Of a stretch of 64,000 nucleotides of DNA, positions 14,769 through 41,299 are shown piece after piece (the stretch's first letter is position 1; every line of letters begins with the position of its first letter). The notes beneath the pieces were generated by a model. The model was not told the DNA's origin, ran no database searches, and saw only the letters and a program-made list of their open reading frames with translations. The stretch is from the IMG/VR virus record IMGVR_UViG_2524614764_000005, positions 40,462 through 104,461 of that record; one strand, 5' to 3'. The translations under genes were made by a program, and so were the position numbers. Origin of the DNA: a virus (lineage: Duplodnaviria > Caudoviricetes).

Positions 14769-14816
14769 GAAGATATAGAAAAGAACGAAATAAAATGAAT
14801 ATTTTAAAGGGAGAGA

Positions 14817-19685: not shown

Positions 19686-20312
19686 ATGACAATGTTGATA
19701 GTTATGGCAACAGATAACAGTATTATTATGACTGCCGATAAAAGAGTTACAAGAACAGATGGTTATGGGAAAGTTATAAAGATTGTGTCGGATGATTATA
19801 AAAAAATAAAAATAATAAAAGGGAAGTATATTGTTTCTTTTGCTGGCAGAACAGCAATTGCGGAAAAAGCATTCAAATTTATTGATGAAAAAATTGTATC
19901 GTTGGAATATGACATTCATTTGTTTTTTAAAAATGCATTTCAATACGGAAAAGCCTGTTTTGAAAACAGTTTTCCAAATATAGAACCTACATCAGTATTC
20001 TTTCTGGGTTATATTAAAGATGATACGAGTTATTTAAAAGGCTACTCATCAGACGATGATTACAAAGGAATGCCTATCTCTGATAGTATAAAGGTTAGAG
20101 CGGAATCCCTTGTTGTGGAGAATCTCCTTTTTAATGAGACGCAAAATTTCCTATCAACCAAAATATCTAGTCGACCATCTTTTTATCAGTCCAATGAAAA
20201 CCTTTCAGTTCTTTTTTCTGAAGCAATTAAAAGAATGAATGATCAAATGATTGGAAAAACAACCTACTCTGTGGTTTTAACATCTAATGGTGCAACAGAA
20301 CTGCACAATTAA
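19686..20312 (+). CDS. Ntn-hydrolase, proteasome beta/HslV-like protein
   Basis: M-T start (Thr nucleophile), MTADKRVT, KI, SFAG motifs of the proteasome beta-fold. Confidence 0.65.
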   Translation: MTMLIVMATDNSIIMTADKRVTRTDGYGKVIKIVSDDYKKIKIIKGKYIVSFAGRTAIAEKAFKFIDEKIVSLEYDIHLFFKNAFQYGKACFENSFPNIEPTSVFFLGYIKDDTSYLKGYSSDDDYKGMPISDSIKVRAESLVVENLLFNETQNFLSTKISSRPSFYQSNENLSVLFSEAIKRMNDQMIGKTTYSVVLTSNGATELHN

Positions 20313-20408
20313 CTTATTGACTGTTATAAGAAACAATTGCAAAATGAGCTTCAGTGTTAGTAATAAAGATCAAATAAAATCATTCTTTTAAGGAGAGGTG
20401 ACAGTTAG

Positions 20409-21461
20409 TTGATTAACATTTTTATAGATACGAACATCTATGAGGCGAAGAATTTTAATTTTGATAATAGTAGTATTTCCAGGCTGCAAAATTTCATTGA
20501 GAATGAGCATGTTGAATTATTTATAACACCCGTAATAATAAAAGAAATCGAAGATCACATTGAACAAAAGGTTGAGGGGTCAGGGAAACAAATTAAGGAA
20601 TTTAAACAAAATGCGCCTATTATGATAAATTTTGAACCATTAAAAAAGATATGGGATCGCGACTTGATAAATCAAGCAAAATTGAAAATTTTAGACCGCT
20701 TTCATGAATTTTTAAGAATAAATAGAGTGTATACAGTTCCTATCAGTGTCACTTATGCAAATCAAATTATACAAAATTACCTTGAAGGCAGTGCGCCTTT
20801 TAGTAAAAAAAAGAAGAAAGAATTCCCAGACGCTTTTACTATGTATACTCTTTTGGAATGGGCTGAAAAAAATAACGAGATAATTTGTATAATTAGTAAT
20901 GATAAGGAAATTAGGGATTTTTGTGAGGGTAATTCTAGACTCTATTACATCAAGACATTGGAAGAGGCCTTTGATTATATAAACCAACAAGATGATGTTA
21001 AGTATCAACAAGCTCAAAACATTTATATGGATCATCTGGAACAATTTCTAGATGATATAGACAATGAAATTAATGAAGCATGCTTTGCTTTTAATATAGA
21101 GGTTTTTGATGTTGAAGATGTAAAAGTAAAAGACTTTTCTCTTGTGAGAGAAGGGGAATGCTACGATGAGCCTCGGGTTCTTGAATTAGAAGATAGTAAA
21201 CTTACATTTGTACTTGATGTTAATTTTGAGTTTACTATTGTAACCAGTAAAATTGACCCCACAAGATCTCCATACGATTCTGAGGAGGGAATGTACTTAT
21301 ACATAGAATATGAAGAAACAGAATATACAGAAATCGTTGAGCTACCGGTAGAACTTGAATTAAATGTTCAGGATTATGAGAAACAAGACTTTATTATCGA
21401 ATCAATAAAAATAAATAATGATGAAGCATATCTACATACTATTAATGATGATTATTTTTAA
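20409..21461 (+). CDS. PIN-domain protein (DUF4935-like) with acidic C-terminal domain
   Basis: IFIDTNIY, EIE, APF..KKKEFPDA, ISND motifs. Confidence 0.8.
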   Translation: MINIFIDTNIYEAKNFNFDNSSISRLQNFIENEHVELFITPVIIKEIEDHIEQKVEGSGKQIKEFKQNAPIMINFEPLKKIWDRDLINQAKLKILDRFHEFLRINRVYTVPISVTYANQIIQNYLEGSAPFSKKKKKEFPDAFTMYTLLEWAEKNNEIICIISNDKEIRDFCEGNSRLYYIKTLEEAFDYINQQDDVKYQQAQNIYMDHLEQFLDDIDNEINEACFAFNIEVFDVEDVKVKDFSLVREGECYDEPRVLELEDSKLTFVLDVNFEFTIVTSKIDPTRSPYDSEEGMYLYIEYEETEYTEIVELPVELELNVQDYEKQDFIIESIKINNDEAYLHTINDDYF

Positions 21462-21516
21462 AATTAAATGTGCTATTTTAAATAAAAGAAGTATTTCATT
21501 TAGAAGGTGATGAAAA

Positions 21517-21549
21517 ATGAATCTTGAAGCAATTAAAGTAGGAGGTTGA
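21517..21549 (+). CDS. Minigene MNLEAIKVGG
   Basis: SD AAGGTGA 6 nt before ATG. Confidence 0.45.
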   Translation: MNLEAIKVGG

Positions 21550-21553
21550 CAGT

Positions 21554-21595
21554 ATGGGAGGTGAGTTCATGGCTGATATTCGTCCAGGAGGATAA
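21554..21595 (+). CDS. Minigene MGGEFMADIRPGG (alternative start 21569: MADIRPGG)
   Basis: SDs AGGAGGT and GGAGGTG precede the two ATGs; followed by terminator GAGGG-ACTAAA-CCCTC-TTTTT. Confidence 0.5.
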   Translation: MGGEFMADIRPGG

Positions 21596-21925
21596 GAGTG
21601 GAGGAGGGACTAAACCCTCTTTTTCATTCCACATTTGGCACATTTGCGTATGAATTCGCCTTTAGATATAGTGGACTTAAATTGAGCTGTATCACAATTG
21701 TCGCAGCGGCCACTATTTTTATCAGGGTATTCTCGTATGTCGTAAATCTTTTCTAAATCAATTTCTTTCAACATGATTTAATTTCTCCTTAGAGCAAGTT
21801 TTTAAGTGTTTATTATAGTATATGATCAAACAAAATTAAACTCCCTTAAATAAACAACAAATTACATATATTGTGTTGACAATGAAATGAAATTATAGTA
21901 AATTTATAGTAGGGAGTGGGGTCAT

Positions 21926-23083
21926 ATGAATCTTAAAACATACATAAAAAATAAATGCGAAGATGATTCTTCATTGGCTATGAAATTAGCTAAAATAGCT
22001 GGCTATTCGGATAGAACTGGCCTTTATAAATTCTTAAATAGCCCTAACAAAGAGATGGATGATTTAAACAATCTTATTAATTTAGTTAGGGAAGTTGATC
22101 AAGAAAGAGAAATTGAAATAATTAGCACCTATATTACAACACTCGACCCTAACAAATCAGCTGCTAGACAAGCTGTAGAATATTTAGATGCTAATCAACT
22201 TGGCGACGAAACTGATGAGCTAGTTATTAAATTATGTAATGCCAGCAACGCAGTGAGCAAAGAGTGGGGGAATGTATATCGCATCCATAGATTGCTCACA
22301 AAAGGTGAAATTGATTTAACTTCTGCTATCAAAGAAACTGGAACTATTAAAATCAAGAGTGAGGAAATGTTTGTTTTTTCAAGAATGATGACATTATATG
22401 AATACCTAAACATTGGTGAGTTTGGTCTTATGAAAAGCACTTCAACATATATCGATCTATCTAATTTGAAAAAGGGATACGTTAAGGATTCCTTTAGCTC
22501 AAGGTATTTGTTGCTTATGGCCAACGTGTTTTTAAATGATAACAATTTAAAACCTCTTAGAGACTACTGTAATCAAATTATATCTGAAGAAGTTAAGGTG
22601 AATCGATTTCAAGTGTTTGCTCACCTCACTTGCGGGAATTCTTATGTGTTTGATGATTATGATAAAGCAAAAGCATATTACATCAACGGTATGAAATTCG
22701 CAAAAAACAGTTTTCATAAATATAAACTTAGATCTGCATTAGCATTCTTAGAAAACACATGGGGAATAAAAGAAAACAAATACCTGGAACAGGAACCTAA
22801 GAATGATTCTGATTTTATAGAACTCGCACATCATTTAATGCTTAATGATCAAACCGAAAAAATGATGGAGGTGTTTAATAAATTAGATTCATCTACTATG
22901 CATGACAATGATTTAGGTTTTCTCTACTACGTTAAAGGAATTTTCTATAAAGATAAGGCTTGCTATTTGAAATCAGTTAAACATTTTAAGAAATCAGATG
23001 ACAAGTATTTTATCAAGCTACCTCTAATTAAGTTAAAAACAATGGGCATAGATAGTGAGATTTTAGATTTATTGGCTATCTAA
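21926..23083 (+). CDS. aimR: Arbitrium receptor AimR (RRNPP family)
   Basis: 385 aa; N-terminal HTH, AARQAVEYLDAN, SKEWGNVY, SVKHFKKSDDKYFIKLPL; followed by a signal-peptide gene. Confidence 0.93.
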   Translation: MNLKTYIKNKCEDDSSLAMKLAKIAGYSDRTGLYKFLNSPNKEMDDLNNLINLVREVDQEREIEIISTYITTLDPNKSAARQAVEYLDANQLGDETDELVIKLCNASNAVSKEWGNVYRIHRLLTKGEIDLTSAIKETGTIKIKSEEMFVFSRMMTLYEYLNIGEFGLMKSTSTYIDLSNLKKGYVKDSFSSRYLLLMANVFLNDNNLKPLRDYCNQIISEEVKVNRFQVFAHLTCGNSYVFDDYDKAKAYYINGMKFAKNSFHKYKLRSALAFLENTWGIKENKYLEQEPKNDSDFIELAHHLMLNDQTEKMMEVFNKLDSSTMHDNDLGFLYYVKGIFYKDKACYLKSVKHFKKSDDKYFIKLPLIKLKTMGIDSEILDLLAI

Positions 23084-23279: not shown

Positions 23280-23376
23280 TTGATAATTCTAGAATTAAAG
23301 TATATAATTATTTGAATAATTGTTGTACATAATATGACGTATAACCCTTATGGGGTTTGCGTCATTTTGTATTTTT
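23280..23376 (+). promoter_or_regulatory. aimX-region promoter plus leader terminator (likely AimR-controlled)
   Basis: TTGATA-17-TATAAT (23280-23308), then hairpin ATGACG..AAACCC/GGGTTT..CGTCAT plus T-run. Confidence 0.7.
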
Positions 23377-23530
23377 ACGACAATATGCCAGTTTTCAAGA
23401 AAATGAATAATGATCTTACAAAAGCACATTAAAAATGTGCTATTTGTCGTGAAAAAAGCTTTACATATAGTTTTTTATCGATTAAACTATAAATAAGACA
23501 TACGGAAATTGAAGTTTGAGGAGGAATACC

Positions 23531-39688: not shown

Positions 39689-41299
39689 ATGTCTTGCATT
39701 GAAATAATGAAGGAGATTAACGGTATTTTGCAACAAGGAATAATAAACAGAATAGTTACAAATGATTCTGTAAACGTCCAGACTAATTTGATTGAATGGT
39801 TTAAAAAAGCTAGTTATGAAGAGGTTAGAAGAGAAGTCGCTAGAGGTTTTAAATTAAACTTTACCTTACCAATAGTAGGAGAACTAACTCCATTTGATTT
39901 TGGGGCAAGCGATAGTGAACAAAAATTTAATGAATTAAAAAGTTATATAAATCAAGGGAAAGTTACTAGAATGAGCATAGCCAGCACACGCAACTTTTTA
40001 AGTGAGAATATTGATGCAAACACAGTTGCAGCTTGGGAACGGTCAATAGCTAGAGCAATGAGTGTATGCACATTGGAGCAATTGACGACTATTCAAACTA
40101 ATGCTTCAGATACAGGTACTTCAGATACAGGTACTTCTGATGGGGACACACATCAACCTCCACCGCCACCTTTTAATTATGGGCTAAGATATACGATTGA
40201 CAACTCAGATGGAAATACTGTAATAAAGATTTTATATCATCCACAAAACAGAAATGATACTTACCCTAAAGTTGAATCATTCTCGGTGATTGGTGGAGAG
40301 TGCATACAAGGAGCTCTTACAGCAGGAGAAAGTATAGATAATGAAAAAACAATAATATTAAAACAAACCTCATCCGATAGTGCACTATTGTTAATATCAA
40401 CTGATAAACAGGATCTAGATATTAAATTTTCAACAAATGTATTGAATACGCTTTTGATGAAAATTTTCGTATACAAGATACCAATTAATCCTTTTCAACA
40501 TATATATACGCAAAAAGTTCCTGAAGGTTATAAAATTATTGGAGCTGGATTTAATTTAGGTTTTGGTAATGGAAATGTCGCCAATAAACCTAATATTATT
40601 CCAACATCGTCATATCCATTGAGCAATAATGAATGGTCAGTAAAATTTTCAAGTAAAATTGAAAATCAAAGCGAGCAAAATCTATTTTTAGCATTAACGA
40701 CAGTATATGACCCACATAACACTTGGGATATTAAAATTTTTAGCAATAAACAAAGGAATGTTAGCAAAGTGAGTAGTTCCCCTAATGAAGATTTCATATT
40801 AGTTGGAGGAGGATGTAATTTTAATGTTATAGGGGCAAATGATTCATCTGATTATTTTAATATGGAAGACTTTAGAGTGGGATTAAGGTCACTTTATCCA
40901 AAAAACTCAAGTACATGGGAAGTTAGTCTTGGCGAGTCTGATATTCAAAGAGTGGGGAACTGGGAGTTAACATGTTATTCAATAGGAATAAAAAACAATG
41001 GTAATATTGAAAACTTTGTAAAGCAAGAGAACTCTAAAAATAATGCCTATCTTTCAGATGGTATTTATTACACAAGCTCCGGTGGGGGTGTTTTAAATGA
41101 AGCTGATAGAAATAAATCTATATCCGTAAACATTCATTATTTCAAATCAATTGGTGGTGGAACAGCAACAGATCAATCGACTCCAATAGGATGGTTCTGC
41201 AGTTCTAGCAATGGTATGCTTTCAAGTGAGTTAAACACATACGCTCTTGGTATAAGACATTCAGGTATTCAATTTTTACCGATTGAGTTCAAATATTAA
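39689..41299 (+). CDS. Moron-like 536-aa protein of unknown function with a triplicated C-terminal beta-rich motif
   Basis: Own SD AAAGGAGG and strong terminator; Ser/Thr/Pro linker; repeats VPEGYKIIGAG, PNEDFILVGGG, YYTSSGGG. Confidence 0.7.
   Translation: MSCIEIMKEINGILQQGIINRIVTNDSVNVQTNLIEWFKKASYEEVRREVARGFKLNFTLPIVGELTPFDFGASDSEQKFNELKSYINQGKVTRMSIASTRNFLSENIDANTVAAWERSIARAMSVCTLEQLTTIQTNASDTGTSDTGTSDGDTHQPPPPPFNYGLRYTIDNSDGNTVIKILYHPQNRNDTYPKVESFSVIGGECIQGALTAGESIDNEKTIILKQTSSDSALLLISTDKQDLDIKFSTNVLNTLLMKIFVYKIPINPFQHIYTQKVPEGYKIIGAGFNLGFGNGNVANKPNIIPTSSYPLSNNEWSVKFSSKIENQSEQNLFLALTTVYDPHNTWDIKIFSNKQRNVSKVSSSPNEDFILVGGGCNFNVIGANDSSDYFNMEDFRVGLRSLYPKNSSTWEVSLGESDIQRVGNWELTCYSIGIKNNGNIENFVKQENSKNNAYLSDGIYYTSSGGGVLNEADRNKSISVNIHYFKSIGGGTATDQSTPIGWFCSSSNGMLSSELNTYALGIRHSGIQFLPIEFKY

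Follow-up and report, generated by a model that had tools for sequence, protein, structure and literature searches.

Leaderless minigenes upstream of aimR

The arbitrium system is a model for communication between viruses. In the SPbeta-like Bacillus phage considered here, two very short ORFs, both ending in Gly-Gly-stop, lie a little way upstream of the gene for the phage's own arbitrium receptor, AimR. Are these ORFs genes, and if so, for which receptor are their peptides meant? The stretch of DNA analysed (the window) covers 64,000 nucleotides of a 104-kb virus record (IMGVR_UViG_2524614764_000005, positions 40,462 to 104,461). A first-pass annotation had described in it a dyad, two SD-led mini-ORFs ending in GG-stop, and a hairpin with a T-run, situated about 330 bp before aimR. 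All of these were found where it had placed them, and aimR indeed starts 330 bp after the stop of the second ORF, with a DUF8096 gene in between. The features of the region are as follows.

Ends at 21461, plus strand: PIN_12 gene, upstream cargo
21483-21498, no strand: junction dyad TAAAAGAAGTATTTCA, one mismatch from the TAAAA-N6-TTTTA family
21502-21510, plus strand: SD sequence of ORF1, AGAAGGTGA
21517-21549, plus strand: minigene 1 (ORF1), MNLEAIKVGG; ATG at 21517, stop TGA ending at 21549
21556-21565, plus strand: SD sequence of ORF2, GGGAGGTGAG, 3 nt from the ATG at 21569
21569-21595, plus strand: minigene 2 (ORF2), MADIRPGG; stop at 21593-21595
21596-21629, plus strand: hairpin and T-run (21620-21624); dG -15.4 kcal/mol, z -2.7
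21610-21774, minus strand: DUF8096 gene, 54 aa, a CxxC...CxxC zinc ribbon; PF26372 label from precomputed hits
21926-23083, plus strand: aimR, the phage's own receptor; Pfam AimR 8e-82, NCBIfam lysogeny_AimR 239 bits
23113-23238, plus strand: aimP, the phage's own secreted propeptide, ending in SASRGA

Since the minigenes have only 10 and 8 codons (13 in a non-conserved long form of ORF2), there is no room in them for a signal peptide. No other tiny ORF in the 104-kb genome both has an SD sequence and ends in G plus G, A or M, and the same genome contains no AimR paralogue or second receptor. The start of ORF2 is the one point on which the first-pass annotation had to be revised: the form beginning MGGEF that it had read needs an ATG at 21554 that is present in only two of ten haplotypes (see below), whereas the MADIRPGG form, starting from the ATG at 21569, is conserved.

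The hairpin core (GAGGG at 21604-21608, CCCTC at 21615-21619) is kept in all haplotypes, and its 3' arm lies inside the end of the DUF8096 gene, which is convergent to the minigenes, divergent from aimR, and part of the same conserved block. The hairpin is probably an intrinsic terminator that closes the upstream operon; a simple terminator scan did not include it among its calls. On the 3' side of aimP are yopM/N/O/P-like genes, among them genes for an HTH protein and a protein with a tyrosine-recombinase fold. About 185 nt past aimP, at 23423-23441, there is a perfect palindrome, AGCACATT-AAA-AATGTGCT, preceded by a promoter close to consensus (23280-23308); the palindrome may serve as an operator in the aimX region. 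Its right half recurs as a 13-nt copy, AAATGTGCTATTT, at 21467-21479, just 5' of the dyad, in this haplotype only.

Conservation and coding capacity

Relatives of the locus were gathered by scanning IMG/VR with AimR and with the peptide patterns, and from public contigs encoding the DUF8096 protein; the species-representative Bacillus genomes G021 and G022 supplied two more, at 76-79% nucleotide identity. The resulting 14 loci represent 10 distinct haplotypes, all from SPbeta-like phages and prophages of the B. pumilus group. Searched as DNA against the phage collection, the 531-bp region gave no match, and a scan of genome contigs with the AimR alignment returned only two B. rugosus loci. The DUF8096 homologs of B. 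rugosus (51-54% identity) are not accompanied by minigenes; one of them lies 2.2 kb from an aimR gene. In 91 Bacillaceae genomes, DIRPGG-stop was found elsewhere just once, out of frame inside a 342-aa gene.

Across the haplotypes ORF1 reads M-(NL/II/IV)-(EA/GE)-IKVGG, with ATG or TTG as start codon, and ORF2 reads M-(A/T)-DIRPGG. Every haplotype has an SD sequence before ORF1, and this is stronger (GAGGAGGTG) where the start codon is TTG. The C-terminal hexapeptide of ORF1 is AIKVGG in the window and EIKVGG in the G022 relative. Conservation among relatives, which had been put forward as a check on the minigenes, is thus seen in their last residues, which are invariant in all 10 haplotypes, amino acid changes being confined to the N-terminal residues of both.

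The same residues vary in their codons. In IKVGG, V is encoded by GTA or GTT, the first G by GGA or GGT, and the second by any of the four glycine codons; in DIRPGG, I is ATT or ATC, R is CGT or CGC, and the two G codons are GGA or GGT and GGA or GGG. The 11 C-terminal codons thus show at least nine synonymous changes and no non-synonymous change among the 10 haplotypes (P about 8e-6, given that 27% of the possible single-base changes in these codons are synonymous). There are indels in the spacer between the ORFs and after the second stop, and these rule out a longer ORF on either strand. The distance from the ORF2 stop to the hairpin core varies from 0 to 9 nt.

A caveat raised at the outset was that the GG codons, as GGAGG, might act only as SD sequences. 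This is refuted by G021 and G022, in which the Gly-Gly codons are GGTGGG, GGAGGA, and GGTGGA: two of these lack the GGAGG word and still specify the same amino acids. Synonymous-only change, together with the retention of Gly-Gly where GGAGG is lost, indicates that the minigenes are coding genes and not SD-like RNA motifs.

Identity to the AimP ends of KLEB27-1-like phages

The first-pass annotation had noted a likeness between the minigene peptides and arbitrium signals, and had named EIKPGG as a signal of phages of the B. cereus group. EIKPGG is indeed such a signal: those of the Wbeta clade are EIKPGG and TIKPGG, and hexapeptides are the active form there (PMC8878798). The likeness proved to be closer than had been thought, because a search for DIRPGG and IKVGG at aimP C-termini uncovered exact matches in phages and prophages related to vB_BauS_KLEB27-1 (OM654379.1), a phage that is available in culture and whose host, B. 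australimaris, belongs to the pumilus group.

For ORF2, a pattern scan of IMG/VR for ADIRPGG-stop retrieved five phage contigs of about 60 kb. In all five, the match is the end of an ORF that bears a signal peptide (...EAEQPYKTADIRPGG) and overlaps the 3' end of an AimR gene. The adjoining AimR scores 161 bits against NCBIfam lysogeny_AimR and is 97% identical to the AimR of vB_BauS_KLEB27-1. The ORF2 hexapeptide is thus identical at six of six positions to the AimP end ...KTADIRPGG of this phage and of the five contigs. The aimP gene of KLEB27-1 itself (L087:3576-3758 of OM654379.1, ending in ADIRPGG) is unannotated in the public record. The AimR cluster to which KLEB27-1 belongs is 31-34% identical to the Wbeta-type AimRs with the signals EIKPGG and TIKPGG.

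For ORF1, 49 genomes of the genus were searched with the KLEB27-1-type AimR. This revealed 391-aa AimRs (NCBIfam 178-223 bits), beside which are AimPs ending in ...IQTSAIKVGG (G019), ...HVSEIKVGG (G032), and ...QVSEIKVGG (G014). The ORF1 hexapeptide is again identical at six of six positions to such ends (...TSAIKVGG in L094, ...VSEIKVGG in L093 and L096), and its A/E polymorphism mirrors the natural AimP alleles AIKVGG and EIKVGG. On both sides of the G019 AimR gene the sequence is syntenic with that of KLEB27-1, and tblastx segments of these flanks are 63-96% identical to it, as against only 27-28% in the arbitrium cassette. Judged from these sequences, AimR and AimP of the KLEB27-1-like temperate siphoviruses (about 60-65 kb) fall into at least two allele groups, xIKVGG and DIRPGG, and each of these rival signal classes has its leaderless copy in the SPbeta-like phage.

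Are the minigenes simply pieces of a KLEB27-1-like aimP? Their flanking DNA is unrelated to that of the KLEB27-1-like genes and the agreement is limited to the peptide-coding words, indicating that the copies were kept for their peptide and are not remnants of recent recombination. In sum, the minigenes are very probably selected coding genes that copy the signals of rivals. The hosts overlap as well: reports place the KLEB27-1-type AimR cluster in B. altitudinis, B. pumilus, and B. aerophilus, the first of which also carries the minigene block. Neither G021 nor G022, both of which have a minigene prophage, contains a KLEB27-1-type AimR, so that co-residence is not documented in these two genomes. 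Conversely, about 130 kb of KLEB27-like and phi105-like loci from partial genomes yielded no tiny SD-led ORF with a G-G, G-A or G-M end.

A constant block between variable cargo and exchangeable aimR-aimP alleles

Homology among the relatives starts exactly at the dyad, which is kept in 10 of 10 haplotypes and has the exact TTTTA arm in G022. On its 5' side are seven unrelated families of cargo genes, always co-directional with the minigenes; they include two divergent PIN_12 alleles, a family of proteins of about 200 aa, a membrane protein, and a MerR and SDR pair followed by an 81-aa ORF. Downstream of these differing cargos the block dyad-ORF1-ORF2-hairpin-DUF8096 is constant. The contents of this slot (19686-21461 in the window, and the corresponding regions of L009-L016, L027, and L028) change from relative to relative, examples being an Ntn-hydrolase-like gene with PIN_12, the MerR and SDR pair, and membrane proteins; such a slot fits a hotspot for accessory or defence genes. 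No promoter conserved among the relatives was found in the approximately 35 bases of conserved sequence that precede ORF1, and the minigenes are therefore most simply taken as the last cistrons of the variable upstream operon.

The dyad itself belongs to a repeated family. TAAAA-N6-TTTTA occurs in 16 exact copies in the window, where 1.4 are expected, and in 21 in the 104-kb genome. Examples in the window are at 14791, 16994, 19549, 20375, 21483 (one mismatch), 34391, 36290, and 53637, and another is at L004:2368. These dyads usually precede an SD sequence and start codon by 8-40 nt and mark the places where one variable cargo cassette gives way to another; in SPbeta, too, the corresponding junction upstream of aimR has one. 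They could be cassette junctions, regulatory sites, or processing sites.

On the other side of the block, the aimR-aimP cassette occurs as three alleles on the same SPbeta-like backbone, with the predicted signals SASRGA (the window and most relatives), AIGNGG (L007, L015, and L016), and DPGRGG (G022). The AimR of the window is about 42% identical to the AimR beside AIGNGG, and the sequence between the DUF8096 start and aimR also differs (L007, L015, L016, and L028 compared with the window); these two differences together indicate that aimR-aimP has been exchanged as a cassette. The minigenes are unchanged across the three cognate alleles and the seven cargo families, and hence do not co-vary with the phage's own AimR or AimP. 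That the minigene peptides differ from the phage's own signal had been noticed from the start, and is borne out by the SASRGA end of its AimP.

A proposed function in forging the signals of rival phages

What might leaderless copies of another phage's signal be for? It is known that AimR without peptide drives lysis through AimX, and that peptide-bound AimR ceases its lysis-promoting activation; most outputs outside the SPbeta group are a small antirepressor, AimX, acting on a repressor, AimC (10.1101/2025.11.23.689978). Secreted non-cognate AimPs push rival phages into early lysogeny to the benefit of the emitter, and polylysogeny is common among arbitrium phages (bioRxiv 10.1101/2025.10.13.681967). 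Against this background we predict that the minigene peptides act as forged signals inside the cell that switch off the AimR of rivals, forcing lysogeny or blocking induction; from the sequence comparisons we put the probability of this at about 0.6.

Transcription of the minigenes would come from the variable cargo operon, which runs in the same direction and of which they would be the last cistrons; the operon would end at the hairpin, which would at the same time insulate aimR from it. Their peptides would accumulate in the cytoplasm of the cell that carries the SPbeta-like phage. The initiator Met of ORF2 should be removable because residue 2 is A or T, which would give (A/T)DIRPGG; the ORF1 product would be used as a 10-mer or trimmed. 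The peptides would then bind the AimR of a KLEB27-1-like phage infecting or residing in the same cell, and this AimR would stop activating its lysis-promoting output. The rival would be driven into lysogeny or held there, so that the cell and its SPbeta-like prophage survive, and the two minigenes would cover two classes of rival signal. Put another way, a KLEB27-1-like phage in an SPbeta-like lysogen would read 'hosts exhausted' from the first minute and go or stay dormant, a scenario that we consider somewhat more probable than its opposite.

Certain points complicate this scheme. The products have 8 and 10 residues, not 6, and N-terminal extensions that stay untrimmed might block binding to AimR. 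Peptides this short are as a rule quickly degraded in the cytoplasm, which speaks against action there. Finally, at the ORF2 stop a terminating ribosome would sit over the 5' arm of the hairpin, which may have an effect in cis. The first-pass annotation had already proposed that signal-less peptides are aimed at the AimR of other elements; the identity to AimP ends and the lack of co-variation with the phage's own allele lend support to that proposal, although 'forged agonist' is probably a more apt term than the 'decoy' it used.

Alternative explanations

Could the conserved feature be something other than a peptide signal? The minigenes might be cis-acting leader or arrest ORFs, in which pausing at I-(K/R)-x-G-G-stop masks the hairpin and so tunes read-through into the DUF8096 antisense and aimR. 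Arrest peptides do show the same pairing of conserved C-terminal with variable N-terminal residues, and 0-9 nt separate the ORF2 stop from the hairpin core. Yet it is just this distance that varies, and folding of both strands (z -0.43 and -0.01) gave one hairpin only and no alternative RNA fold; moreover, there is no co-directional ORF before the terminator, and the gene that follows the hairpin is convergent. Transcription and translation are in any case largely uncoupled in Bacillus, which also counts against arrest. Above all, arrest would reduce the six-of-six identity of both peptides to AimP ends, and the match of the ORF1 A/E polymorphism to those ends, to coincidence, and we regard this explanation as very improbable. 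Still less credit can be given to a non-coding origin, whether as a GGAGG-rich RNA sponge, as a CCUCC-rich 3' UTR of the DUF8096 gene, or as functionless chance ORFs or decayed aimP remnants. The region does contain five SD-like motifs of the GGAGG type within about 110 nt, and it is the 3' flank of the minus-strand DUF8096 gene. However, two GGAGG motifs are destroyed in G021 and G022 (GGAGGT to GGTGGG, GGAGGA to GGTGGA) with the amino acids kept, the variation has a period of three, and the spacer has indels. There is likewise no Rfam match and no structure on either folded strand in excess of the hairpin, and each minigene has an SD sequence and start of its own.

If the peptides are made, they might still act elsewhere than on a rival in the same cell. 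Their nearness to aimR, and the G-G C-terminus that they have in common with the sister alleles AIGNGG and DPGRGG, would suit a private, secretion-independent input to the carrier's own AimR, or to sister SPbeta-like alleles, that times the lysis-lysogeny switch; recognition of AimP by non-cognate AimRs is documented (10.1101/2025.10.13.681337). A cognate ligand should co-vary with its receptor, however, and the minigenes stay the same next to three AimR alleles that differ widely (42% identity), which makes action on the own AimR unlikely. Phages with the AIGNGG allele also carry AIKVGG and would jam their own receptor constitutively, and overall we judge a role in the carrier's own circuit improbable. 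A route resembling that of the leaderless peptides termed LCPs is also unlikely, if less so. Here the peptides would be released and re-imported via Opp, and would act on rival phages in neighbouring cells too. LCPs, RRNPP ligands of about eight residues, are made directly in their mature form, with no leader, and still act between cells (PMC10518010). The minigene peptides exactly copy signals that are normally imported, and phage lysis would free them from the cytoplasm anyway; on the other hand, the locus has no linked exporter gene, the peptides are hydrophilic, and outside the cell their N-terminal Met and extensions would still be attached. Forgery within the carrier cell is thus the explanation that we prefer.

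Comparison with known peptide systems

The minigenes share with AimP their final hexapeptides (DIRPGG and AIKVGG/EIKVGG, identical to KLEB27-1-like AimP ends), a presumed AimR target, and a place in an arbitrium locus. They differ from it in size, route, and gene position. The precursor of AimP has about 40-60 aa (about 40-48 aa for the AimPs compared here) and begins with a signal peptide; the product is exported, processed, and taken up again, and its gene directly follows the cognate aimR (overlapping it in the KLEB27-1-like contigs). The minigenes, with 8-10 codons and no signal peptide, are found 330 bp before an aimR that is not cognate to them, from which the convergent DUF8096 gene separates them. 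A short interfering peptide encoded beside an RRNPP-type receptor gene of a mobile element is known from the Enterococcus plasmid pCF10, in the form of iCF10 (prgQ). That peptide, though, is processed from a precursor that is secreted, it works against a pheromone of the host, and its receptor, PrgX, is the plasmid's own.

Among published concepts, the closest are the LCP class and the cross-talk by secreted AimP described in two 2025 preprints. LCPs (SIP-RopB of Streptococcus pyogenes and relatives, PMC10518010) resemble the minigene peptides in having about eight residues in near-final form, encoded by a leaderless, SD-led tiny ORF. They bind cytosolic receptors of the RRNPP type, to which AimR, the apparent match of the minigene peptides, also belongs. 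But LCPs serve self-communication, each with a RopB/Rgg-type receptor gene of its own as partner, whereas the minigene peptides match the AimR of other phages and the adjoining AimR has a different cognate signal. In secreted-AimP cross-talk (10.1101/2025.10.13.681967, 10.1101/2025.10.13.681337), a foreign peptide represses AimR, leading the receiver to lysogeny, and the emitter benefits. There the manipulation arises as a side effect, since the AimP that the emitter secretes for itself resembles others of its clade; the minigenes, by contrast, are dedicated extra genes without an export signal that carry the signals of a different clade. A literature search found no description of leaderless or mimic arbitrium peptides; the strings DIRPGG and EAIKVGG were not found, and IKVGG appeared only in papers that are unrelated by title. 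The supplements of the RRNPP_Detector paper list none of the minigene peptides.

The locus therefore suggests a step beyond secreted cross-talk, namely genes kept only to counterfeit the signals of another phage family, inside the cell and with neither secretion nor processing. If this is true, it would represent a new mechanism of inter-phage competition and host protection, through protection from superinfection and control of one prophage by another. The resulting arms race would be a selective pressure that could help to explain the diversification of AimR/AimP alleles and their rapid turnover. It would also mean that genes of 8-10 codons, called by no annotation pipeline, can be functional.

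Related signals in phi105/phi106-like prophages

A second group of arbitrium loci has signals close to the minigene peptides. AimRs of about 370 aa, confirmed by Pfam and NCBIfam, occur in phi105/phi106-like (clade-1) prophages of the B. pumilus group, the prophage context being confirmed by PHROGs and gene order. The AimPs of this clade end in EIKVGM, EIKVGA, DVKVGM, EVRVGM, and DVRPGM. Clade-1 AimR was considered as the main target of the minigenes and rejected, since only four or five of six residues match and the last always differs; once the exact KLEB27-1-like matches had been found, these prophages were demoted to possible secondary targets of cross-talk. Sample lists of the clade-1 AimPs and of the minigene contigs did not overlap. 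The phages phi18-2 and 268TH002 were likewise set aside as a source of the peptides, because their signals end in INAIGG, which is not a minigene peptide.

In G022, the minigene prophage is accompanied by a phi105/106-like one with an AimP that ends in EIKVGM (L051/L057/L058; G022:C1, about 2.696-2.717 Mb). This is one residue off the ...EIKVGG of ORF1 in the same genome, which makes the phi105/106-like prophage a possible secondary target of cross-talk. In a phi106-type locus (L038:2591-2806) the AimP frame runs 17 codons past DPPVGM, the phi106 signal, to give a 71-aa ORF, and the AimR frame is extended as well; this may reflect a degraded system or a sequencing error. In the record named phi105 (KY197768.1; L059:1513-2754), aimR and an aimP ending in EVRVGM are both present but unannotated.
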